Shown one piece after another: positions 14,551 to 55,023 of a stretch of DNA of 56,342 bases. The DNA is taken from assembly GCA_023267045.1 (NCBI GenBank), contig JAHFOB010000004.1, positions 1 through 56,342 on the forward strand. Reading direction: 5' to 3'. Positions within the stretch are counted from its first letter, which is position 1, and every line of letters starts with the position of its first letter. Under the pieces are notes generated by a model. That model searched no databases, was not told where the DNA came from, and was given only the letters and a program-made list of their open reading frames with translations. A program made the translations under genes and the position numbers. The DNA is from Candidatus Zambryskiibacteriota bacterium (GTDB taxonomy: Bacteria > Patescibacteriota > Minisyncoccia > Phycocordibacterales > DATDWN01).

Positions 14551-15702
14551 ATGATAGATCTAAAAGTAGTGAGCTCTGTATTAGCTCAACTAGAGGAAGA
14601 GCGTGGCATACCTCGAGAGAAAATTCTTGAGGCTATTGAGCTTGCCCTAGCTACTGCCTATAAAAAAGAGTATGGAAAGAAAGGACAGATTGTTCGAGCA
14701 AAATTTGATATGAATACTGGAAAATCTGAAATGTTCCAAGTAAAAATCGTCGTTGATGAAAGCACAGTTTTCATGGATGAGGATGAATTGTTAGAAAACG
14801 AAAGTGAACCTATCGTAGAAGGAGTTCCGGAAAAAGAACTATATAACTCTGAAAAACATATTTTGCTCTCCGATGCTCGTCGTATAAAAAAAGATGTAAA
14901 GCTCGGTGAAGAAATGATATTTCCCCTTGAAGGTCAGGAGGACTACAGTCGTATTGCCGCTCAAACAGCAAAACAGGTTATCATGCAGAAAATTCGTGAA
15001 GCAGAAAAAGTTTCTATCATGGCTCAATATGGACAAAGAGAGGGTGAAATAGTTACTGGAACTGTCCAAAGAATGGAGCGAGGAAATATTTTTGTTGATC
15101 TGGGAAGAGCCCCCGGCATACTGCCATACGAAGAACAAATTCCTGGAGAGAGATTTGGCCAAGGTGAGAGACTTCGATCATATCTATACAGAGTAGAGGA
15201 ATCAGGAAAAGGTGTCTTCCTACGACTTTCTCGTTCACATCCAAAGTTTTTGGAAAAACTTTTTGAAGTTGAAACGCCAGAAATTGCAAACGGAACTGTT
15301 GTCGTAAAAGCCGTTGCTCGTGAAGCCGGTAGCCGAACAAAAATCGCTGTCGCCTCAAAGGACTCTCACATCGACCCAGTTGGTTCAATGGTGGGTCAAC
15401 GTGGAGTGCGAGTTTCTACTGTTATGTCAGAATTGGGTGGAGAAAAAATAGATATTATTGAATGGTCTGAAAATCCAAAGAAGTTTATTGAGGATGCTCT
15501 CTCTCCTGCTAAAACAATCGAAGTTACAATAAATGAAGCGGAAAAACAAGCCACTGTCTTGGTTTCTGAAGATCAACAGTCACTTGCTATAGGAAAAGGT
15601 GGTCAAAACGTGCGACTTGCTGCAAAACTAACTGGTTGGAAAATAGATATTCAGTCTACAAATCCTAGAAAAGAAATTGCAGAAGAAACTCCTACTGAAT
15701 AA
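14551..15702 (+). CDS. nusA: Transcription termination/antitermination factor NusA
   Basis: 383 aa with an N-terminal NusA domain, S1 and two KH regions (GxxGxxV, IGKGGQNVRLA). Confidence 0.95.
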   Translation: MIDLKVVSSVLAQLEEERGIPREKILEAIELALATAYKKEYGKKGQIVRAKFDMNTGKSEMFQVKIVVDESTVFMDEDELLENESEPIVEGVPEKELYNSEKHILLSDARRIKKDVKLGEEMIFPLEGQEDYSRIAAQTAKQVIMQKIREAEKVSIMAQYGQREGEIVTGTVQRMERGNIFVDLGRAPGILPYEEQIPGERFGQGERLRSYLYRVEESGKGVFLRLSRSHPKFLEKLFEVETPEIANGTVVVKAVAREAGSRTKIAVASKDSHIDPVGSMVGQRGVRVSTVMSELGGEKIDIIEWSENPKKFIEDALSPAKTIEVTINEAEKQATVLVSEDQQSLAIGKGGQNVRLAAKLTGWKIDIQSTNPRKEIAEETPTE

Positions 15703-15823
15703 AACTTCTTTCTCCTCATATCTTTTTTGGAAACAGAATAAATTCTTGCTAGAATTTTTCTTCGCGCTCGTCTCTACACGGACTCCGCGATGTTCCAAAA
15801 AAGTCATGAGTCAACGAAGTTTT
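15701..15823. repeat. Long hairpin element, family 1b, copy F
   Basis: It starts at the nusA stop. The outer arms are aaacttctttctcctcatatctttttt / aaaaaagtcatgagtcaacgaagttt. The conserved core gaataaattcttgctagaatttttcttcgcgctcgtctctacacggactccgcgat is shared with 21247-21369 and 41957-42081. Confidence 0.8.
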
Positions 15824-15861
15824 ATAGATGTGCTATAGTTATAAAAAATAATAATCACAAT

Positions 15862-20180: not shown

Positions 20181-21248
20181 GTGAAAAAACACTATAAAGA
20201 CATCAAGCTCAATTCCCTTCCAGAGAGAGAATTAGAGATTATTGGAAGTATTACTGCTGAGAAAATGGCCGTGATGCGAGAGAAAGCTCTGGCTAAAATA
20301 AAAGCCGAATTTGAAGCTCCAGGTTTTCGTAAAGGCAACGCACCCGATTCTATTATTATTCAAAAAGTCGGCGAGATGAGACTGTTAGAGGAAGCAGCCG
20401 AGATGGCGCTCTCTGAAGAATATCCAAATATTTTAGATGAACATAAAATAGATGCAATCGGTAGACCAGAAATAAACGTCACAAAAATAGGTGTCGGAAG
20501 TGACATGGAATTTAAAATAAAAACGGCTCTGTATCCAGAAGTAAAACTTGCTGATTATAAAAAGATTGCCAAAAAAGAAAATAACAAAGAGAAAAAAGTT
20601 GAAAATGTAACCGAAAAAGAAGTGGACGATGTTATAAAAAATATTCAAGAAAACATTGCTCACCAAAAAGTGCACTCTGAGTCCGGAGCGCCTGACCACA
20701 TGCACAACCACAGAAAAATTACGGATGAGGATCTACCAGAGGTTAACGATGAATTTGCAAAAATGATAGGCGGGTTCAAAGACGTTGCCGACATGCGACA
20801 AAAAGTAAAAGAAAATATTAGCGCAGAGAAAGATCTGAAGGAAAAAGATTTGGGGAGAACAAAAATCCTTGAAGCTATCATGGAAACTTCTACAATAGAT
20901 TTACCGAAAATTCTTGTTGATGGAGAAACAGAGAAAATGTTAGCACAGTTCAAAGACGATATAAGTAGAAGTGGTATAGCATTTCCAGACTATTTGAAAC
21001 AGATAAAGAAAAGTGAAGATGATCTGAAAGTCGATTGGAAAGATACTGCGACAAAGAGAGCAAAATCACAGATTATTTTAAACACAATCGCAAAAGATGA
21101 GGGAATAGTTGCAAAAGAAGATGAAGTAAAAAAAGAAATGGAAAATATTTTATCTCAACATAAAGACGCAGATCGTTTCCGTGTCAGAATGTATGTGGAG
21201 ACTTTTTTAACTAACGAGTTAGTTTTTCAGTTTTTGGAGTCACAATAA
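20181..21248 (+). CDS. tig: Trigger factor (short form)
   Basis: N-terminal ribosome-binding signature APGFRKGNAP. It lies in a tig-clpP neighbourhood and has a GTG start. Confidence 0.85.
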   Translation: MKKHYKDIKLNSLPERELEIIGSITAEKMAVMREKALAKIKAEFEAPGFRKGNAPDSIIIQKVGEMRLLEEAAEMALSEEYPNILDEHKIDAIGRPEINVTKIGVGSDMEFKIKTALYPEVKLADYKKIAKKENNKEKKVENVTEKEVDDVIKNIQENIAHQKVHSESGAPDHMHNHRKITDEDLPEVNDEFAKMIGGFKDVADMRQKVKENISAEKDLKEKDLGRTKILEAIMETSTIDLPKILVDGETEKMLAQFKDDISRSGIAFPDYLKQIKKSEDDLKVDWKDTATKRAKSQIILNTIAKDEGIVAKEDEVKKEMENILSQHKDADRFRVRMYVETFLTNELVFQFLESQ

Positions 21249-21369
21249 AATCTCTCACTCGTCACAACTTTTTCCAGTAACAGAATAATTTTCTGCTGAA
21301 AATTTTCTTTCTGCTCATGCTTCACGCATTCCGCAGATACTAGAAAAAGTTGTGACTCGACGAGATTTT
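21247..21369. repeat. Long hairpin element, family 1b, copy G
   Basis: The arms are aaaatctctcactcgtcacaactttttc / gaaaaagttgtgactcgacgagatttt. The core is homologous to copies F and E. Confidence 0.8.
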
Positions 21370-21383
21370 GTTAGTGCTAATAT

Positions 21384-21553
21384 AAAATCCCGTTGAGTCG
21401 CAAGTTTTTGGAGACCTCGCAGACCCAAAGCCGGTTCCGTCAATGACTCTGAGTGAAACGAAGAGCTCTTGACGGATTTGGGTCGAGAACAAAGTGAACG
21501 TAGCGCAGGCGGAGTGAACGGTCTTCAAAAACTTGCGAGGAGAAAGGGATTTT
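21384..21553. repeat. Long hairpin element, family 1a, copy B (inverted relative to copy A)
   Basis: It matches the rc of 2088-2255 except for the apical ~18 nt and a few arm positions. It ends at the rsmE stop codon. Confidence 0.85.
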
Positions 21554-22883: not shown

Positions 22884-22955
22884 CCCTGTAGTGAATTTTG
22901 GCATTGTGCTTCGCACAGCAAGGTAATCCTTGCAATGCCAAAATCTACTACGGGG
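22884..22955. repeat. Family 2 palindromic element (long form)
   Basis: ccctgtagtgaattttggcattg...caatgccaaaatctactacgggg. It belongs to the same family as 38409-38477 and 51608-51676, in inverted orientation. Confidence 0.8.
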
Positions 22956-29280: not shown

Positions 29281-29292
29281 AACACTTTCTTG

Positions 29293-29323
29293 CCCCGTAG
29301 TGAGCTATGCTCTACTACCAGGG
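29293..29323. repeat. Family 2 palindromic element (31-nt short form)
   Basis: ccccgtagtgagctatgctctactaccaggg. Confidence 0.8.
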
Positions 29324-29363
29324 TTACAGACAAAATTTTCTGTTGTTTTAGTGAAAGGCATAT

Positions 29364-37239: not shown

Positions 37240-37441
37240 AAAATCTCGTTGAGTCATATTTTCGCAAAATCTCTTTCTCCCTGTATCTCTCGAAGAGACC
37301 GTTCACTCCGCCAGCGCTTCGTTTACTTAATTCTCGACCTTGATTTGTCAATTTAACCCTTCACTTCGTTCAGGATCAATTGACAAAACCATGCTCAAGG
37401 TCTGCGAGGTCTCTTCTCGAGACACAGCTCGACGAGATTTT
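37240..37441. repeat. Long hairpin element, family 1a, copy C (with an extra partial left arm)
   Basis: It shares gaccgttcactccgccagcgcttcgtttacttaattctcgacc and tctgcgaggtctc with copy A. The outer ends are aaaatctc...gagatttt. Confidence 0.8.
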
Positions 37442-37537: not shown

Positions 37538-38095
37538 ATGAGTGTAATTAAACACAAAAATCAAAGGGTTGGGATCTTTATTGATACCCAAAACTTGTAT
37601 CATTGCGCCAAAAATATTTATGGCGCAAAAGTAAATTTCGGCCAAGTAGTCAAAGATGGTTTGGCGGGAAGATCGCTCACCAGAGCTGTGGCCTATGTCA
37701 CTACAACAGAATCAGGGGAGGAAAAAAACTTCTTTGAAGCTCTGGGAAAAATGGGAATCGAGACTAAAACTAAAAACCTCCAAATTTTCTCTGGAGGTGC
37801 AAAAAAGGCAAATTGGGATATAGATTTGGCGATTGATGCTATTAAACTTGCTCCGAAACTCGACGCTGTAATATTGGTCACAGGAGATGGAGACTTTGTA
37901 TCACTTGTTGAATATTTGCAAAATGTGGGGTGCCAAGTTGAAGTGATTTGTTTTGGTAAAGCAACATCAGCAAAACTAATAGAAGCCAGCGACGACTTTA
38001 TTGATCTAGATGAAAACCCACGAAAATATTTACTCGGCTTTAGGGGAGAGGGAAATCGTCGTGGACCAAGACCTGCCCAGAAAGAAGAGGAGTAA
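37538..38095 (+). CDS. NYN-domain / LabA-like protein, paralog 3
   Basis: VGIFIDTQNLY and ILVTGDGDFVSLV; 185 aa. Confidence 0.8.
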   Translation: MSVIKHKNQRVGIFIDTQNLYHCAKNIYGAKVNFGQVVKDGLAGRSLTRAVAYVTTTESGEEKNFFEALGKMGIETKTKNLQIFSGGAKKANWDIDLAIDAIKLAPKLDAVILVTGDGDFVSLVEYLQNVGCQVEVICFGKATSAKLIEASDDFIDLDENPRKYLLGFRGEGNRRGPRPAQKEEE

Positions 38096-38163
38096 AAATT
38101 TACAAAAACCGCCAAGAGGCGGTTTTTGCTTGACTCTAAAAATGTTGGGTATAAAATAATAAG

Positions 38164-38376
38164 GTCCTGTCGGAAGCAATGCGAGTCGATAGCTTACCAG
38201 GCGGTAAGCGTCGAAAACAGAACACCTGAAAGGGCAGTGGGGGAACTTCCGCGTGCTGATCACCCACCCCCACTGTCCCGATCGGGTTAGTTCTTTAGAA
38301 AATTCTGGTGATTCCATTACAATTCGCTCTGCGAGCGAACAACCGATTCTCATTTTTTGGGAATTCGGTTTTTTAT
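38164..38376 (+). ncRNA. Candidate GC-rich structured RNA (R3), strand uncertain, family unknown
   Basis: Plus-strand TTGACT(38130-38135)-16-TAAAAT. Hairpins: tcgatagcttacc/ggtaagcgtcga, gggcagtggggg/cccccactgtccc and ttcgctc/gagcgaa. The terminator hairpin aaccgattc...gaattcggtt is followed by TTTTT (38341-38375). Confidence 0.3.
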
Positions 38377-38408
38377 TTAGCAAAACTTTGTTACAATTAG
38401 TCTAAATG

Positions 38409-38537
38409 CCCCGTAGTAGAAGTTGGCATTGCAAAGTGTACTTTGCTAGAAAACCAAATGCCAACTTCACTACAGGGCTTAGCCCTGTAGTGAGCTAGGC
38501 TCTACTACCACGGGCTATCCCGTAGTGAAAATGACAT
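38409..38537. repeat. Composite of family 2 palindromes: 69-nt long form, nested 32-nt short form, then the arm atcccgtagtgaaaatgacat
   Basis: 38409-38477 matches 51608-51676 with only 3 substitutions. 38483-38514 is a short form absent from the 51.6-kb copy. Confidence 0.85.
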
Positions 38538-38620
38538 TTGAAATAAAATTATGTATATAAATATAAAATGGTCGATATTAGTGATGAATAATAAAGAAAA
38601 AATGGCCAGCTCTTTGAGCT

Positions 38621-39505
38621 ATGTCATTTTCTACTAACGGAATGCCCCCTGAACAAAAAGATCCTAGAATTCCTATAAAATCTCTTCGAACATACCAGGG
38701 AGATGTGGAAGAAGCGCTACACAAAAACAATCTTGGCACTACAAATATATTTGTTGCTGAACAAAAAAGAAAAGAGAAAGAACCTGTTGATCTAAAACAG
38801 CAAGAAGTAAAAACTGAAAATAGAAATAAATTTTTTGTGACTATCGGTATTTCTCTATTTATACTTGGGATAATCGCCGTTGGTGGTGTTTACTATTTAA
38901 AAAATAAAGAACAGGTTGTGGTTATCCAGAAAACCAAAGCCCTGATTAGTTTTTCGCAAGAAAAGGATTTTGTGATTGAAAATTCTACCCGAGCAAAACT
39001 TTCATCTGAAATATTGTCGGAAAATAAATCTTTCAAATTGCCACCGAATTCTGTTCTGTATATAAACACCACAACAGCAAAAGGCGATAAAGCTGATGTC
39101 TCGAGTGTTCTCACCACACTTGCACCAGCTATGCCGGCTTCACTTGAGCGAGCTTTTGAAGGCGAGTACATGATAGGAGTGTATTCTTTTGATAAAAACT
39201 CACCGTTTATTATTCTTTCTACAAAAGATTTTGGCAGTAGTTGGAGTGGAATGCTCAAATGGGAAAAAGATATTGTTAGTGATTTAGGAAAAATATTTGA
39301 AGTTCCAGAAGACAGCTCAACTGTAAGCGGAGTCTGGGCTGATAAAGCTTTGAAAAATAAGGATTTGCGAATTTTGAAAGATAGTAACAAGAACACGGTT
39401 CTATTGTATTCGTTTATAGATAAAAACACTTTGGTCATAACAAGAAATGAGGCTATTTTCAGTGCTGTTTTGGGTAAATATGTAATAAGTCAGCAGGAAA
39501 GATAA
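38621..39505 (+). CDS. Membrane-anchored hypothetical protein
   Basis: 294 aa with one TM segment (FFVTIGISLFILGIIAVGGVYYL). The start is ambiguous between ATG 38621 and ATG 38642, because the first 21 nt form a hairpin arm. Confidence 0.6.
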   Translation: MSFSTNGMPPEQKDPRIPIKSLRTYQGDVEEALHKNNLGTTNIFVAEQKRKEKEPVDLKQQEVKTENRNKFFVTIGISLFILGIIAVGGVYYLKNKEQVVVIQKTKALISFSQEKDFVIENSTRAKLSSEILSENKSFKLPPNSVLYINTTTAKGDKADVSSVLTTLAPAMPASLERAFEGEYMIGVYSFDKNSPFIILSTKDFGSSWSGMLKWEKDIVSDLGKIFEVPEDSSTVSGVWADKALKNKDLRILKDSNKNTVLLYSFIDKNTLVITRNEAIFSAVLGKYVISQQER

Positions 39506-41557: not shown

Positions 41558-41729
41558 AAAATCTCTTTCTCACCACAACCTTTTCAGAGACACAAACTTT
41601 TCCAGCCAAAAGTTTGTTCTAGTCCTCGGTCGCAACTTGTCAATCTAACTCGCTTTGCTCGTCGTTTGACAAGTCCATGCTTGCGACCTGCGGGTGCTCT
41701 GAAAAGGTTTTGGTTCGATGAGATTTTTT
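41556..41729. repeat. Long hairpin element, family 1a-like, copy D
   Basis: The outer arms are aaaaaatctctttctcaccacaaccttttcagag / ctctgaaaaggttttggttcgatgagatttttt. The inner ttgtcaat...ttgacaag..ccatgct..ctgcg is homologous to copy C. Confidence 0.8.
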
Positions 41730-41956: not shown

Positions 41957-42081
41957 AAAAAATCTCTTTCTCACCAATACTTTTCTGTCGCCGGAATAAT
42001 TTCGTGCTCGAAATTTTCCTCGCACTCGCCTCTACACGGGCTCCGTGATGCGCCATAAAAGTATTGGTTCGACGAGATTTT
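41957..42081. repeat. Long hairpin element, family 1b, copy E
   Basis: The arms are aaaaatctctttctcaccaatacttttc / aaaagtattggttcgacgagatttt. The core is ggaataatttcgtgctcgaaattttcctcgcactcgcctctacacgggctccgtgatgcg. Confidence 0.8.
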
Positions 42082-42229
42082 GTAAAAGAAAAGCTGTTTG
42101 AAACTAGCTCAGAGGATTTTTGTCTGAGTTTGAGGCGCGAATGAGTATCGTGACCAAGGTGTAGTAAACCTACTCCGCGGGAACGAACGGAATGAGCAAC
42201 GAAAAAATCGGACAAAAAGACCGCAAATA

Positions 42230-43571: not shown

Positions 43572-43680
43572 ATCCCGTTAGAAATAACGGAAACTAGTAC
43601 GTATGAAAATAGAATTATTACAAAATAATCGCTCTAGGGTCTTCGGAATCAAAACTGAAGTTTCCTATTTCTAACGGGAT
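43572..43680. repeat. Hairpin atcccgttagaaataacggaaact...agtttcctatttctaacgggat that embeds the pcrA start codon
   Basis: The right arm ends in cgggATg (ATG at 43679). The terminal motif is the same as at 7525-7642. Confidence 0.7.
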
Positions 43681-45670
43681 GAATTATCTAGAAAACCTGA
43701 ACGAAAACCAGAAAAAAGCTGTTTTAACTACTGAAGGACCCGTTTTGATCGTAGCTGGTGCTGGAGCTGGCAAAACCAAGACTATAACTCACAGAATTTT
43801 ACATCTAATACTGAACGGGATCTCACCGGAGAGAATTTTGGCTATAACTTTTACAAACAAAGCAGCTAAAGAAATGCGGGATAGGGTTTTACAATTGCTC
43901 AGATTCGAATATGGAGAGCGCTCGCCCCGTAGCGAGCTCCGCTCTGCTACCGGGGTGCCATTTGTCAGCACATTTCACTCACTAGGAGTACAAATTCTGA
44001 AAGAAAATGCCGAATTGTTAAAACTGCCACGACATTTCAATATTTTTGATACAGCCGACTCAAAAAAAGCTCTGAAAGAAGCAATGCTCCACCTCGGCAT
44101 AGACCCGAAAGAAAATTTGGATAAGGTCAGGCATATTATTTCTAACGAAAAAGGTAGAGGAGTGACTGTATCTGAATATCTAGAAAGGGGGGCTTTTGAC
44201 TTTACATCAGAACTTGTAAAAAAAACGTGGGCAAAATACGAAGAGATATTGAATAAAGAAAAAGCTTTGGATTTTGATGATTTACTATTAAAAACTTTGA
44301 AACTCCTACAAAAATATCCTGATATTTTGGAGAAATACCAAGAAAGATTTTTATACATACACGTAGACGAATACCAAGACACAAACAAAGTCCAGAATTA
44401 TATTGTTGACCTTTTAGCTAGGAAATATAGAAATCTGTGTGTTGTTGGAGATACAGATCAAAATATTTATAGTTGGCGAGGAGCAGAAATAAAAAACATG
44501 TTGCATTTCGAAAAAACCTACCCGGAAGTCCAGACTTTTTTTCTCGAACAGAACTATCGTTCGACAAAAAACATCTTGGCCGTTGCAAATGAAATAATCG
44601 AAAAAAATAATTTTCGCATTCCGAAAAAACTTTTTACAGAAAAAGAAGCTGGAGAAAAAATTGGCCTGTTTGAAGGAAGAAGTGAAGTAGATGAAGCACA
44701 TTTTATCGCTTTAAAATCAAAGGAGTTGATAGATGGTGGGGAAAAAGCAGAGGAGATAGCCGTTCTATACAGAGCCAATTTTCAGTCACGCGTATTGGAG
44801 GAAGCTTTTTTGGCCTACGGTGTTCCATACCAAATGCTAGGCACAAAGTTTTTTGAAAGAAAAGAAATCAAAGATGTTTTGAGTTTTATAAAAGCATCGC
44901 TCAATCCAGAAAGTCTGAGTGACTTGACTCGAATTATAAATATTCCTGCTAGAGGTATCGGAAAAACTACTTTACAAAAAATTATTTCTGGAAAAGAATC
45001 TGAATTGCCAGAAAGTATGAAAATAAAAATAAATAATTTCCGAAATATACTTAATGATTTCAAAAATGTCTTGACCAGCCAAAAACCAAGTGATGCTTTG
45101 AAATATATTATAAAAACTTCTGGAATGGAAAATATGTACAACACTGGATTGGAAGAAGATACTGATAGACTAGAAAACGTCATGGAACTTGTGACCCTTG
45201 CCACAGGATACGATATATACCCAGCAGAAGACCCCGAAGTAGAGCAAGCTCACTACGGGGCAAGCGGAATTGAAAAATTTTTGACTGACTCGGCCTTGGC
45301 TACGGACCAAGACGCTCTAGATCAACCAAAAAATGGTGTGAAACTGATGACTGTCCACTCATCAAAAGGTCTTGAATTCGACTACGTTTTCGTCTCTGGT
45401 ATGGAAGCTGATCTTTTTCCCCATACAAAAATGAATCGTGTAAAAAAATCTGGTGAAGAGGCTGAAGAGGAGAGACGACTTTTTTATGTTGCGGTCACTC
45501 GAGCCGGTAAAAAACTTTTCTTGACCTATGCCAGAGTACGGACTATATTTGGGACAATGGAAGTAAATTCTCCATCAGAGTTTCTAGACGATATCCCTGC
45601 AAAATACACAGAGCAAGAATCTTTTGTTGGAGAAACGCCAAGAAAAGCCATATTCAGTATAGATTTCTAA
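43679..45670 (+). CDS. pcrA: ATP-dependent DNA helicase PcrA/UvrD
   Basis: 663 aa with motifs AGAGAGKTKT, TFTNKAAKEM, VDEYQDTN, GDTDQNIYSWRGA, QNYRS, MTVHSSKGLEF and YVAVTRA. Confidence 0.92.
   Translation: MNYLENLNENQKKAVLTTEGPVLIVAGAGAGKTKTITHRILHLILNGISPERILAITFTNKAAKEMRDRVLQLLRFEYGERSPRSELRSATGVPFVSTFHSLGVQILKENAELLKLPRHFNIFDTADSKKALKEAMLHLGIDPKENLDKVRHIISNEKGRGVTVSEYLERGAFDFTSELVKKTWAKYEEILNKEKALDFDDLLLKTLKLLQKYPDILEKYQERFLYIHVDEYQDTNKVQNYIVDLLARKYRNLCVVGDTDQNIYSWRGAEIKNMLHFEKTYPEVQTFFLEQNYRSTKNILAVANEIIEKNNFRIPKKLFTEKEAGEKIGLFEGRSEVDEAHFIALKSKELIDGGEKAEEIAVLYRANFQSRVLEEAFLAYGVPYQMLGTKFFERKEIKDVLSFIKASLNPESLSDLTRIINIPARGIGKTTLQKIISGKESELPESMKIKINNFRNILNDFKNVLTSQKPSDALKYIIKTSGMENMYNTGLEEDTDRLENVMELVTLATGYDIYPAEDPEVEQAHYGASGIEKFLTDSALATDQDALDQPKNGVKLMTVHSSKGLEFDYVFVSGMEADLFPHTKMNRVKKSGEEAEEERRLFYVAVTRAGKKLFLTYARVRTIFGTMEVNSPSEFLDDIPAKYTEQESFVGETPRKAIFSIDF
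43925..43955. repeat. Family 2 short palindrome located in-frame inside pcrA (copy 1)
   Basis: ccccgtagcgagctccgctctgctaccgggg encodes PRSELRSATG between helicase motifs Ia and Ib. Confidence 0.75.
45232..45260. repeat. Family 2 short palindrome located in-frame inside pcrA (copy 2, inverted)
   Basis: ccccgaagtagagcaagctcactacgggg encodes PEVEQAHYG. Confidence 0.75.
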
Positions 45671-51607: not shown

Positions 51608-51699
51608 CCCCGTAGTAGAAGTTGGCATTGCAAAGAGTACTTTGCAAGAAAACAAAATGCCAACTTCACTACAGGGCTATCCCGTAGTGAAAATGACAT
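51608..51699. repeat. Family 2 long palindrome plus the arm atcccgtagtgaaaatgacat (paralogous to 38409-38537)
   Basis: It starts 4 nt after the stop codon at 51601-51603. Confidence 0.85.
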
Positions 51700-51802
51700 G
51701 AAGAAATACAAAAAATAAAAAATGAATGAGTCAGTAACAAAAAAACATAGTGGTGATAAAAAATATTCCGTTCTACGAACTATGTCATTTTCTACTATCG
51801 GG

Positions 51803-53905
51803 ATGAAAAAGTTTTTACCCTACATTTTAATGTTTGTAATAGCAGTCGGGTTTTTTAATCCATCATTAGCTGGTGCAGCTTCAGCATACGAAAACTGTGT
51901 AGCTGAAAATAGAGTGCTTGCGGAAACTGCAAGTGATGGCACTGTATACCAAGACTGTAGCCGTTTGCCCGGAGCACCGTCAGATGCATATAAACCAACA
52001 AGTTTAGGGTCGGCAATTTTTGGTGGAAGTGGAGCCGATTGTGGGTTATCTCCCACAACATGGGCTACGTGTTTCTCGCATCTTTTTGTCTGGATCTCCT
52101 ACTTGATTTTAGGACTCGTATCTCTAGTACTTTGGATGGCAGGCGTTCTACTGGATTATGTTTTGAAATACACCATACTCGGAATGTCAGAAAATATAAA
52201 AAATCTAGCTGGAATAAACATTGCATGGAAAACAATAAAAGACTTGATGAACATATTGTTTATATTCCTTTTAGTATACGAAGGAATACTGCTCATAATA
52301 GGCCAAAGTGATGTCGGTAAAATCAGAAAGTTTATTACAGGAATTGTGTTAGCTGCTCTTCTCATAAACTTCAGTTTATTTTTTACAAAAGTTTTGATAG
52401 ATGCTTCAAATATAGTAACTATAGGATTTTATAATTCTATCATTGCTCAATCTTCGGAAGTCGTTAATCCATCAGCAAATTACAACAGCACAACTGGTAA
52501 TATTGACCAAGCTATAAGTACTGGAACGATAAGCGGGCTTTCAGTACCTTTCATGAAAGCTCTTGGAGTTTCTAGTTTCTTTTCAAAAGAAAGTATTAGC
52601 CAGATGAGTTCAAACTCTGGTGGTGATACAAACCTTATAATAATAGGCCTTGCAGGATCAATTCTATTTCTCATTGTCTCTTTTGTTTTTTTTGCAGTTT
52701 CTATGATGTTTATAATAAGATACATCGCTCTTATTGTGCTTCTAATGCTGTCGCCAATCGCATATATGGGGATGGCTCTGCCTTTCATGCAAAAATATGC
52801 TAAGGAATGGTGGGAATCTCTCCAAGGACAGTTACTCTTTGCCCCAGTGTATATGCTCATGACTTGGGTTGTATTAACTTTAATGTTTAGCGGTGGTTTT
52901 ATAACTCAAGCTGGACCAGACGGTTGGTCAAAACTGCTTGTAGGGAGTAATGGAGCCGGAAGCCAAGGTTCAATTTCTCTTTTATTTAATTTTGTTGTAA
53001 TTATTGGGCTCATAATAACAACTCTGGTTATATCAAAAAATATAGCCAAAAAAGGCTCTGACCTCATATCAAGTGCTACAAAAAATCTCACGGCATTTGC
53101 AGGCGGAAAAATTGTCGGTGGAGCTGCAAAAATTGGTAGAAGTACTGTTGGAGCAGCGGGCCAGGCTGTTGCTAACAATCAGTGGCTTCGAGAAAGAGCC
53201 CCTGATAGTAGACTGGCACGTACAGCACTTTCTCTTGGATCAAAAACGGGATCAGCAAGCTTTGATGCTAGAGCAACCAGTAGTTTTGGAGCATTAACAG
53301 ATAAAACAGGTGTAAAAGTTGGTAAAGCTGGAGGAAAAGGTGGGTATCAGAAAGATAGAGAGGATAAAATAAATAAAAGAATGGAATTCTTCGAGAAAAA
53401 TGTTATGGCAGATACCATAACCGGTAACAATGTTGAGAATGAAATGACTAATAGAAGGTGGAATAGTCTTGCAGATTACAATTACTTACAAAATACTGTT
53501 GGATTGAGTGGTGCACAAATTGCGTCTATTAATGCTACTGGTACAAGTAAAAATCAGATTGAAGCACTCGGTATAAACGCACGCCAAGCTGAACTTATGA
53601 GACGAAGAGTACAAACAGATCTCAACCGCGCTTCAGAACAAGAGAACTTAAACAGAAAAGATAGGTATCTACATAATCTTAGTCAAACACATTGGTATAC
53701 ACCTAATTTGTATAGTGGAGTTTCTGAAGATGCTGAAGCGGCGAAAAGGATGAGGGATAATAAAAAAGCTAAAAAAGGAGGCAAGGATAAGATCCTAGCA
53801 GATCTTGCGGCAGTGTTAAAAGAAGAGGAACCTGAGACGACCCCACCAACAGGAGGAGCACCGACAACTCCAACACCTCCCGCAGCAGGAGGAACAACAC
53901 CATGA
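51803..53905 (+). CDS. Polytopic membrane protein, VirB6/TrbL-like by architecture and context
   Basis: A signal or anchor MKKFLPYILMFVIAVGFFNPSLAGA, at least 6 hydrophobic segments and a hydrophilic C-terminal tail ending in PTTPTPPAAGGTTP. The stop overlaps the next ATG (ATGA). Confidence 0.5.
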   Translation: MKKFLPYILMFVIAVGFFNPSLAGAASAYENCVAENRVLAETASDGTVYQDCSRLPGAPSDAYKPTSLGSAIFGGSGADCGLSPTTWATCFSHLFVWISYLILGLVSLVLWMAGVLLDYVLKYTILGMSENIKNLAGINIAWKTIKDLMNILFIFLLVYEGILLIIGQSDVGKIRKFITGIVLAALLINFSLFFTKVLIDASNIVTIGFYNSIIAQSSEVVNPSANYNSTTGNIDQAISTGTISGLSVPFMKALGVSSFFSKESISQMSSNSGGDTNLIIIGLAGSILFLIVSFVFFAVSMMFIIRYIALIVLLMLSPIAYMGMALPFMQKYAKEWWESLQGQLLFAPVYMLMTWVVLTLMFSGGFITQAGPDGWSKLLVGSNGAGSQGSISLLFNFVVIIGLIITTLVISKNIAKKGSDLISSATKNLTAFAGGKIVGGAAKIGRSTVGAAGQAVANNQWLRERAPDSRLARTALSLGSKTGSASFDARATSSFGALTDKTGVKVGKAGGKGGYQKDREDKINKRMEFFEKNVMADTITGNNVENEMTNRRWNSLADYNYLQNTVGLSGAQIASINATGTSKNQIEALGINARQAELMRRRVQTDLNRASEQENLNRKDRYLHNLSQTHWYTPNLYSGVSEDAEAAKRMRDNKKAKKGGKDKILADLAAVLKEEEPETTPPTGGAPTTPTPPAAGGTTP

Positions 53906-55023
53906 TTACAGAAACAGAAAAAATAATCAAAGAAAGAGTCAATAAATTACCATCTGGAGTGTTAATTGCTATTAAGAGTATTTCTTTGGAAGAAAAAATG
54001 AAAGTCGTAGCAAAAAATAATAATTTAAATGAAGAACAGGAAGAATTATTCGCAACAGAAACTACCCTTGTAATATTAGGAATTGAATCGCCAGAAAAAT
54101 ACCCTGATAACCTAGCAGATAATGTTGGCTTAGATGATAAAACAGTTGTAAAAATCGCCAAAGAAGTTGATGAACAAATTCTTACACCAATACTGGAAAT
54201 GGTTGAGAAAAATAAAAAAATAATTTCTCAAAAGCCAAATTCTGAAAAATCTTACGGAAATACACAAAATATCTCCACAGGAGTTAAAGAAAGAGTTATT
54301 GAAATTGCAGTAAAATATGGACTAGATAAAAACCAAGAAAATGCTTTGGTTACGCTTGCCCTATCTGTAATTTCAAACCCAGAAGAAAAAGGTCTACTGC
54401 AGAATAATATATCTCAAACTCTAAAAATATCTGGCTTGATGGCGGAACAAATAGTAAGTGACTTAGAAAAAAGAGTTTTCAGTCAACAGGTAAAATTAGA
54501 AAAAATTCCCGACAAAAAACCAACAGAAAATAAACCTGTTGAAACAAAAATTCCTGAAGTGAAACCCACAAACTTGCCTATGGTTGAGAAAAATGAGGTA
54601 GCACATGATGTAAAAAAAGATAGTAGCGAGGGATCAGTAGCTAGTAGCAAGGAAAATACTACAGAACCAGATATGTCAAAGAGACACTTTGACATTGAAC
54701 AAACACCGCCTCCTGTGCCAAAACCTGTTATGCCAGCTCCAGTATACAAACCTGATATTCCAGAGCCAGTACAAAGACCTTTTTCTGTGCCTAGAATAAT
54801 CCCAGTAGTAGAGCAAAGCTCACTACGGGACACGGTTACAATGCCAAAAGAAGAAGAAATGACCAAACCCCAAAGCCCAATGACCAATGAGGATGCGAAA
54901 CCTGTTCAGAATATGATGAATGATAAAATGACAAAAGTAACAACGGGTATGTCAGAAAAACCCAAACCGGACGAACCACCAAAGAAATACAGTGCTGATC
55001 CATATAGAGAACCGTTGGAGTAA
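53902..55023 (+). CDS. Hypothetical protein with a Pro/Lys-rich C-terminal half (T4SS-like cluster)
   Basis: 373 aa, translationally coupled to the upstream gene. Confidence 0.55.
   Translation: MITETEKIIKERVNKLPSGVLIAIKSISLEEKMKVVAKNNNLNEEQEELFATETTLVILGIESPEKYPDNLADNVGLDDKTVVKIAKEVDEQILTPILEMVEKNKKIISQKPNSEKSYGNTQNISTGVKERVIEIAVKYGLDKNQENALVTLALSVISNPEEKGLLQNNISQTLKISGLMAEQIVSDLEKRVFSQQVKLEKIPDKKPTENKPVETKIPEVKPTNLPMVEKNEVAHDVKKDSSEGSVASSKENTTEPDMSKRHFDIEQTPPPVPKPVMPAPVYKPDIPEPVQRPFSVPRIIPVVEQSSLRDTVTMPKEEEMTKPQSPMTNEDAKPVQNMMNDKMTKVTTGMSEKPKPDEPPKKYSADPYREPLE
54801..54829. repeat. Family 2 short palindrome located in-frame inside the 373-aa ORF
   Basis: cccagtagtagagcaaagctcactacggg encodes PVVEQSSLR. 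Confidence 0.7.

Follow-up and report, generated by a model that had tools for sequence, protein, structure and literature searches.

A bulged hairpin repeat, which we call type A, occurs twice in the helicase gene pcrA on a 56,342-nucleotide (nt) stretch of DNA from Candidatus Zambryskiibacteriota bacterium (assembly GCA_023267045.1, contig JAHFOB010000004.1; the whole stretch is henceforth termed the window). The second copy, at 45232-45260, is probably a non-autonomous hairpin repeat similar to the repetitive extragenic palindromes (REPs) of other bacteria, which entered pcrA as DNA and was tolerated in a permissive loop of the protein. The host gene runs from 43679 to 45670 on the plus strand and encodes a UvrD/PcrA-type helicase of 663 amino acids. 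The product matched Pfam PF00580, PF13361 and PF13245, with UvrD-helicase, AAA_19 and UvrD_C domains present, and PcrA of G. stearothermophilus (PDB 1PJR) across residues 4-647 (E 5e-142). Judged by its superfamily-1 domains and the full-length similarity to a solved PcrA, the open reading frame (ORF) is a UvrD/PcrA helicase. By string search the 29-mer CCCCGAAGTAGAGCAAGCTCACTACGGGG was located at 45232-45260 on the plus strand, letter for letter as quoted in a previous sequence-only reading of the stretch; 100 dinucleotide-preserving shuffles gave 0 matches. The reading frame around it is YDIYPAE-D518-PEVEQAHYG-A528-S529-GIEKFLTD, and PEVEQAHYG is situated about 30 residues upstream of MTVHSSKGLEF. 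The position, the encoded peptide and the site upstream of this motif thus were as that reading had described them. The 29-mer CCCCGAAGTAGAGCAAGCTCACTACGGGG is also present in L121, an independent assembly of a different sample that is 99.97% identical over 12 kb. Therefore, copy 2 is not an assembly artefact.

The insertion became visible upon comparison with homologues. At least 8000 PcrA homologues were scored and 36 sequences were aligned. The best non-identical homologues were about 78% identical; those with a named source were from Parcubacteria, Paceibacterota and Minisyncoccia. Close homologues consist of 639-650 residues compared to 663 in the window. At site 2 most of the aligned homologues have YDxY-xxE-(E/D)-GIEKF; the window protein has YDIY-PAE-DPEVEQAHYGAS-GIEKF, a net gain of 11 residues. 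At site 1, a second variable loop in this alignment, the net gain is 6 residues. The contig L118 contains a 78%-identical orthologue in the same gene order as the window (LysM-M23 peptidase, PcrA, RsmA, UbiA ... PrgI, TraC-like gene). Alignment of the DNA to L118 resulted in a single clean 33-nt gap at site 2, with CCCCGAAGTAGAGCAAGCTCACTACGGGGCAAG between GAAGA and (C/T)GG. The 33 nt absent from L118 (45232-45264) begin with CCCC and end with GGGGCAAG. On the other strand they read CTTG-CCCC-GTAGTGAGC-TT-GCTC-T-ACTTC-GGGG, which is the complete unit of the family together with the unpaired tag at its 5' end. No target-site duplication was present at site 2 in the L118 alignment. Type-A copies were absent from 45 kb of the syntenic relatives L118, L129 and L130; the window has three in the corresponding region. 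These are the three closest syntenic relatives, and the parsimonious reading is a recent gain of type-A copies in the lineage of the window.

An AlphaFold2 model was calculated from the 36-sequence alignment (mean predicted local distance difference test score, pLDDT, of 77). At the two inserts (residues 81-90 and 518-525) the pLDDT was below 50, and these low-confidence stretches were non-helical. Insert 2 is located in the loop between helices 492-509 and 526-542. Relative to 1PJR, insert 1 is opposite a gap that follows the helix after motif Ia and precedes the STFHS motif, and insert 2 falls into a variable stretch ahead of FLTDLAL and motif V. The sequence-only reading had suggested that a predicted structure be inspected for whether both segments are dispensable loops, and both are in low-confidence loops. 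Its central claim, tolerated insertions rather than chance similarity, was supported by this, by the 33-nt gap and by the 11-residue insertion relative to 35 homologues. In the orthologous pcrA genes of L130 and L129 both of these loops contain GC-rich palindromic inserts that are unrelated to type A (L130, 7634-7690; L129, 10229-10285 and 11543-11653), e.g. CCCCAAGGTCGAACCTTGGGT in L130, which encodes PQGRTLG, and a structured insert of 90 nt in L129. Both PcrA loops are general acceptors of inserts of this kind, and several hairpin families seem to target them or to survive there.

Type A is a bulged hairpin of 35-37 nt with the consensus CYTG-YCCC-GTAGT-GAGC-TNN-GCTC-T-ACTAC-T-GGGR-T. An unpaired CYTG tag precedes three stems that are interrupted on the 3' arm by two conserved single-T bulges; the loop has 3 nt. 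With a covariance model of the family, exactly five copies were identified in the window (scores of 41-60 bits, E-values from 1e-11 to 1e-17) and no further significant match. Copy 1 in pcrA is on the plus strand (43921..43957, 51 bits); in its sequence CTCG-CCCC-GTAGC-GAGC-TCC-GCTC-T-GCTAC-C-GGGG-TG a T-A pair of the middle stem is replaced by C-G, a compensatory change. It encodes PRSELRSATGV (residues 83-93). Copy 2 was placed on the minus strand (45229..45264, 41.4 bits, E 2e-11), where it reads CTTG-CCCC-GTAGT-GAGC-TT-GCTC-T-ACTTC-GGGG-TCT; it encodes D518-S529. The opposite orientation of the two pcrA copies noted previously was thus correct. The additional statement that the string of copy 2 is the reverse of the consensus was wrong: both strings run one way, as the consensus quoted then is the minus strand of the copy at 29293. 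That copy (29289..29325, plus strand, 55.9 bits) is intergenic, between an RNHCP-domain gene and a metallo-beta-lactamase-fold gene, both on the minus strand. A further intergenic copy (38479..38515, plus strand, 42 bits) resides between two related elements, termed type B and type C below. The last one (54798..54834, minus strand, 60 bits) is in frame in ORF 53902..55023, where it encodes IPVVEQSSLRD in a Pro/Glu/Lys-rich linker. Three of the five copies are therefore intragenic.

Every copy in the window folds into the bulged hairpin with z-scores of -2.6 to -6.5; copy 2 does so on both strands (-7.9 and -8.2 kcal/mol, z about -4). The type-A unit has 14 base pairs, and in 114 copies 95.6% of the respective alignment cells were paired. 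In an alignment of 120 copies conservation ended abruptly, with c-y-T-R-Y-C-C-C as its left and T-G-G-G-R-T as its right limit and random base frequencies beyond. No convincing target-site duplication was detected in the random flanks of these copies; the junction of types B and C shows a repeat of no more than a CT dinucleotide. As the search prescribed the inner 20 nt, the conservation of this core across species is ascertained and not measured. The outer stem was left free. Here, pair 5-35 was CG in 65 and UA in 28 copies, pair 8-32 was CG in 71 and UG in 19 in addition to AU, GC and UA, and pair 4-36 was GU in 57, AU in 18 and GC in 14. The covariation score of 0.142 was equalled in none of 500 shuffles. 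Lineage-specific variants of the outer stem were CCAA/TTGG in Flavobacteriaceae and CAGG/CCTG, GGGGA/TCCCC and TCAT/ATGA elsewhere. The covariance model distinguished the strands (60 bits versus 7.6 bits on the other strand; opposite strands generally scored about 7 bits). Because of the G.T pairs and the two fixed T bulges the fold is strand-specific.

Beyond the window, GTDB was scanned with one genome per species for the exact core GTAGTGAGCT-N(1-2)-GCTCTACTAC. At least 117 genome stretches carry this 20-nt core; by our own estimate about two would be expected by chance. Almost all of the matches listed were from Patescibacteria of many classes, together with a few isolates and metagenome-assembled genomes (MAGs) of Flavobacteriaceae and a few MAGs with other labels. 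Among the matches listed, the Patescibacteria comprised the Kazan group, Paceibacterota, Saccharibacteria and Nomura-, Zambryski-, Uhr-, Falkow-, Magasanik-, Taylor-, Nealson- and Liptonbacteria. The abundance was patchy: one genome assembly of the Kazan group had at least seven copies on five contigs, and many other Patescibacteria stretches had none. Of 121 copies in other genomes 54 were between unidirectional, 11 between convergent and 8 between divergent genes, 25 were at the end of a block and 23 in a called ORF. After manual and Pfam checks, in which short or N-terminally over-extended ORFs were dropped, about 12 of these 23 (about 10% of all copies) remained in real genes. Intragenic hosts were TopA, an IleS-like class I aminoacyl-tRNA synthetase, TrmD, a MurD-like ligase, HsdS, a GT1 glycosyltransferase, an FNR-like reductase and a DUF4012 protein. 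TopA was hit at the same site in L025 and L092 and at a different site in L047. In topA of L025 (2346-2406) one type-A copy sits within the loop of a second copy, which is inverted, and the peptide is KSRSDPGSRAELTTGSTTG; in L092 the outer copy stands alone. Of the four open reading frames of type A, three were in use, all of them hydrophilic (PRSEL-STTG, PSSRAKLTTG and PVVEQSSLR). The hydrophobic fourth frame occurred once, in an ORF stretch which is probably not coding.

Types A, B and C have a common stem base, CCCGTAGT...ACTAC(n)GGG, and different interiors. Besides the five type-A copies, the 56-kb window contains three type-B and two type-C elements. The 69-nt type B at 38409..38477 (plus strand) has the stem base CCCCGTAGT...ACTACAGGG in common with type A and a different interior; repeat finding yielded a further copy at 51608-51676 (plus strand) and a variant at 22884-22955 (minus strand). 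Type C, about 124 nt long and delimited by TCCCGTAGTGAAAATGACAT...ATGTCATTTTCTACTAACGGA, is at 38518..38641 (plus strand) in the 5' leader of the ORF starting at 38621, and a second copy was found at 51680-51803. These elements provide a pair of a filled and an empty site. The B-C junction ACTACAGGG-CT-ATCCCGTAGT is intact at 51668-51690, and at 38469-38520 it is split by a 37-nt type-A unit. The clusters B-A-C (38409-38641) and B-C (51608-51803) are between promoter-like sequences, TTGTTACAAT..TAAATG, and the coding starts of the ORFs at 38621 and 51722. The annotated ATGs of these ORFs are probably within type C, and the true starts may be at about 38642 and 51803. The relatives L129 and L130 do not have the composite B/A/C cluster.

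On the reading that we favor, a type-A unit would have entered pcrA as DNA, adding 33 nt (11 codons) and no stop codon. It would have survived because an insert of this length without a stop falls into a loop at the end of domain 2B that is exposed to solvent and variable in length. The unit would move as a folded single strand by a structure- and sequence-specific enzyme which is supplied in trans; an HUH/Y1-type transposase would be the obvious model. Within genes only copies with a length that is a multiple of three and which are in permissive loops would persist, and the inserted peptide itself would be functionless.

Several observations weigh against such a mobile repeat. The boundaries of copy 1 could not be cleanly defined against the orthologue because the loop has diverged too far. 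Of the two insertions in pcrA proposed previously, site 2 therefore stands as a clean 33-nt gain, whereas site 1 gained 6 residues between unclean boundaries. The scan of the collection accepted exact cores only, and an identical 20-nt core in very divergent hosts is unusual for selfish repeats and could indicate a host function. With respect to transcription 31 copies were antisense and 23 sense, i.e. without a clear bias, and the mixed orientations in the window disclosed no replication-strand rule. In addition, no transposase is linked to type A. A search with E. coli RayT detected no Y1 gene among the ORFs of the window and just one weak match in 0.87 Mb of type-A loci (L011, 392-1028, minus strand), 3 kb from a copy. 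The L011 protein is a Y1_Tnp member by Pfam (E 8e-11), flanked by a hairpin other than type A, and one Y1 gene per at least 117 loci is approximately the background rate for genomes of about 1 Mb with one such gene. A recurrent neighbor family resembling a mobilizing enzyme was absent from the at least 117 loci; the families recurring near type A were housekeeping only (GTPases, aminoacyl-tRNA synthetases, glycosyltransferases). The remaining adverse points are derived from the RayT family to which the L011 protein belongs.

Conceivably, type A is mobilized specifically by the conserved, single-copy RayT of Patescibacteria and is the true REP of a REP-RAYT system; we are doubtful about this. 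RayT-like proteins are common and very conserved in Patescibacteria, in a fixed neighborhood, and would be a trans factor of the kind that is able to hold a repeat constant. The family of the L011 protein had 5791 matches, and the best 120 clusters were 71-100% identical. The RayT gene is neighbored by a methyltransferase, a solute-binding protein and type IV secretion system pilins on one side and by GyrA and a metallo-beta-lactamase-fold gene on the other. This locus looks like a vertically inherited (domesticated) REPtron. Yet nearly all closely related RayT genes examined are flanked on both sides by GTCAARG-N5-CYTTGAC with lineage-specific loops, and never by type A. Because of this position the palindrome is the cognate REP of the Patescibacteria RayT in a classical REPtron, a repeat other than type A. 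In 742 kb around 80 RayT-family genes the covariance model found 0 type-A copies. The window contains two palindromes of the RayT-flanking type, (AT)GTCAAAG-N5-CTTTGAC(AT), at 228-246 and 54675-54693. Therefore, the genome probably has a RayT/GTCAARG system, although the E. coli RayT search found no such gene in the window itself. The second palindrome, 105 nt upstream of a type-A copy, lies in the reading frame of ORF 53902..55023 and encodes MSKRHFDI. Type A contains GTAG/CTAC, a motif typical of RAYT substrates (PMC3733652), but GTAG is base-paired here and not an unpaired tag. The actual tag, CYTG, resembles, over four bases, the CTTG that is located 2 nt 5' of the upstream hairpin at roughly one third of the RayT loci. 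A RayT-like protein is a candidate mobilizer of type A only by analogy. RayT-like genes, apparently single-copy, were also seen at L123 (10001-10627), L125, L126 and L132-L169.

We consider it rather improbable that type A is a structured element with a host function, either in protection or processing of RNA 3'-ends or as a protein-binding site in DNA, which is selected and of which the intragenic copies are incidental. The exact core in many Patescibacteria classes and in some Flavobacteriaceae would fit, as would the constrained fold indicated by covariation, G.U pairs and fixed bulges. In short intergenic spacers many copies are at a distance of 5-30 nt from a start or stop codon, types B and C with the same stem base are in 5' leaders, and the copy in TopA has been kept in both L025 and L092, the proteins of which are just 82% identical. 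The patchiness argues against it, as five copies in the 56-kb window compare with none in the closest syntenic relatives and none in a further 387 kb of DNA from Patescibacteria. Further, the orientation to transcription is without clear bias, no neighboring gene is recurrent, and nesting and clustering of copies are typical of mobile repeats. Rfam had no matching family; at the gathering threshold the whole window gave 4 tRNAs only. Another reading, to which we also assign a low probability, is that the hairpin in its forms A, B and C (stem base CCCGTAGT/ACTAC-GGG) is ancient, conserved in many Patescibacteria lineages, constant in sequence over hundreds of species and served by its own trans partner other than RayT. 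It may in addition have a host role linked to genome maintenance because TopA was hit at two independent sites, one with a nested copy, and PcrA twice. Finally, a similarity due to a selected peptide motif, chance or an assembly artefact instead of a DNA insertion could draw on the P-x-V-E-Q that copy 2 has in common, in the same frame, with the copy at 54798-54834, but it is in our judgement already ruled out by the unrelated peptide that copy 1 encodes from the other strand, the mostly intergenic location of the family, the use of at least three reading frames, the chance expectation of 0 matches and the agreement of two independent assemblies.

How does type A, taken as a tolerated mobile hairpin, compare with known repeats? 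GTAG- and CGTC-tagged REPs were described in eight phyla (Di Nocera et al., 2013; PMC3733652). Patescibacteria are not among the REP hosts reported there, nor are Bacteroidetes among those of the GTAG type. REPs in frame are known, including those in UvrD/Rep, and two per gene occur in uvrA or uvrB (PMC3733652). Like GTAG REPs and REPINs (PMC3733652), type A is an imperfect palindrome of the 20-40 nt class that forms a stem-loop and is apparently dispersed near gene ends. As with REPs, the copies elsewhere are mainly extragenic, mostly between unidirectional or convergent genes, and form clusters or dimers (B-A-C in the window, paired hairpins in Flavobacteriaceae) without target-site duplication. 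Also like REPs, type A contains GTAG and is occasionally in frame, in genes of replication and repair and sometimes twice per gene. The differences are equally distinct. GTAG is in the middle stem paired with CTAC and the unpaired 5' tag is CYTG; two single-T bulges are fixed; and the core is common to many classes of Patescibacteria and some Flavobacteriaceae, whereas REPs are genus-specific. Unlike in a REPtron, a RAYT gene flanked by type-A repeats was not found, and the Patescibacteria RayT has its own palindrome. Because an unpaired GTAG tag and a cognate RAYT flanked by the same repeat are both missing, we call type A REP-like and not a GTAG REP.

Other parallels are less close. Rickettsia palindromic elements (RPEs) are selfish palindromic DNA, in frame in essential genes of a bacterium with a small genome, to which they add surface peptides; RPE-1 is roughly 100-150 bp long and restricted to Rickettsia. 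They were reportedly described by Ogata et al. in 2000. Type A likewise is in frame in protein genes in which the ORF stays open. It differs from RPEs by its length of 33-37 nt and its hosts, many Patescibacteria, a distinction by length and host and not by sequence comparison. The ends of IS200/IS605 elements are single-stranded hairpins which are recognized by Y1 HUH transposases. Type A similarly forms an imperfect, strand-specific hairpin that has extrahelical bases and a short unpaired tag next to it, and its insertion leaves no target duplication. In contrast to IS200/IS605, it is a single hairpin instead of a pair of left and right ends, and its copies neither enclose nor adjoin a transposase gene. 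The compact, AT-rich genomes of fungal mitochondria have likewise been colonized by GC-rich palindromic clusters or double-hairpin elements, and some of these are in frame within coding genes. This is another domain of life with unrelated sequences and an analogy only. RPEs are also mentioned in PMC3733652. Further candidates were discarded. A miniature inverted-repeat transposable element from a DDE transposon was rejected as target-site duplications were seen neither at the pcrA site nor in the flanks of the 120 copies. A phage origin was rejected because a viral collection of 2.9 million contigs contained a single match. The copies are single and not arrayed, unlike CRISPR repeats; their density is far too low for a DNA uptake sequence; cassette arrays as around integron attC sites are absent; and there is no resemblance to a tRNA fragment.

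The genomes of Patescibacteria are tiny and streamlined, and mobile DNA is usually described as scarce in them. That a helicase loop tolerates a selfish hairpin is an event of a known kind, because in-frame REPs in repair genes are documented in other phyla. What seems undescribed is a family of strand-specific, doubly bulged hairpins with one core across many classes of Patescibacteria and some Flavobacteriaceae, and with patchy abundance. In the library searched, no paper connected REPs or RAYT with the candidate phyla radiation or Patescibacteria, and a literature search for the type-A sequence returned chance primer matches only. Being able to lengthen loops of PcrA, TopA, IleS, TrmD and MurD, type A would be a source of lineage-specific protein insertions, a marker of recent genome change and a substrate for finding the enzyme that moves it. 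As Patescibacteria carry a classical RayT gene with its own palindromes, of which type A is not the cognate repeat, the question is raised what mobilizes type A. For annotation, hairpin inserts explain odd loops of low complexity or low confidence in otherwise conserved proteins.

Some arrangements of type A elsewhere are more complex. In the Kazan group (L081, 297-1407) two inverted composite repeats of about 110 nt with a type-A core bracket a sigma-70 family gene; the composite repeat recurs on four other contigs of that genome. An autonomous long version of type A was rejected, as L081 is the only case and encloses the sigma-70 gene and no transposase. In Flavobacteriaceae (L070, 7000-7080; L015, 2040-2230) the core with a CCAA/TTGG stem is beside a second, related hairpin. 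These pairs are directly downstream of terminator-like hairpins and are similar to REP doublets.

The window has further structured or repeated stretches. Between an NYN-domain gene and the next gene a GC-rich, structured-looking stretch was noticed at about 38165-38400, with a similar one at the same position in L129 and L130. A permissive Rfam scan of 38090-38660 gave no credible match; it may be an unannotated small RNA. A repeat of about 160 nt is present at 2099-2260, at 21379-21540 (inverted, 91%) and at 37296-37351, always intergenic and twice between convergent genes; a permissive Rfam scan of 2080-2270 likewise gave no credible match. More intergenic repeat families, e.g. AAAAGTTGTGACTCGACGAGATTTTGT, are at 15701-15826, 21247-21371, 41558-41585, 41703-41729, 41959-42084 and 2231-2257. 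For a small genome the window is unusually rich in repeats.

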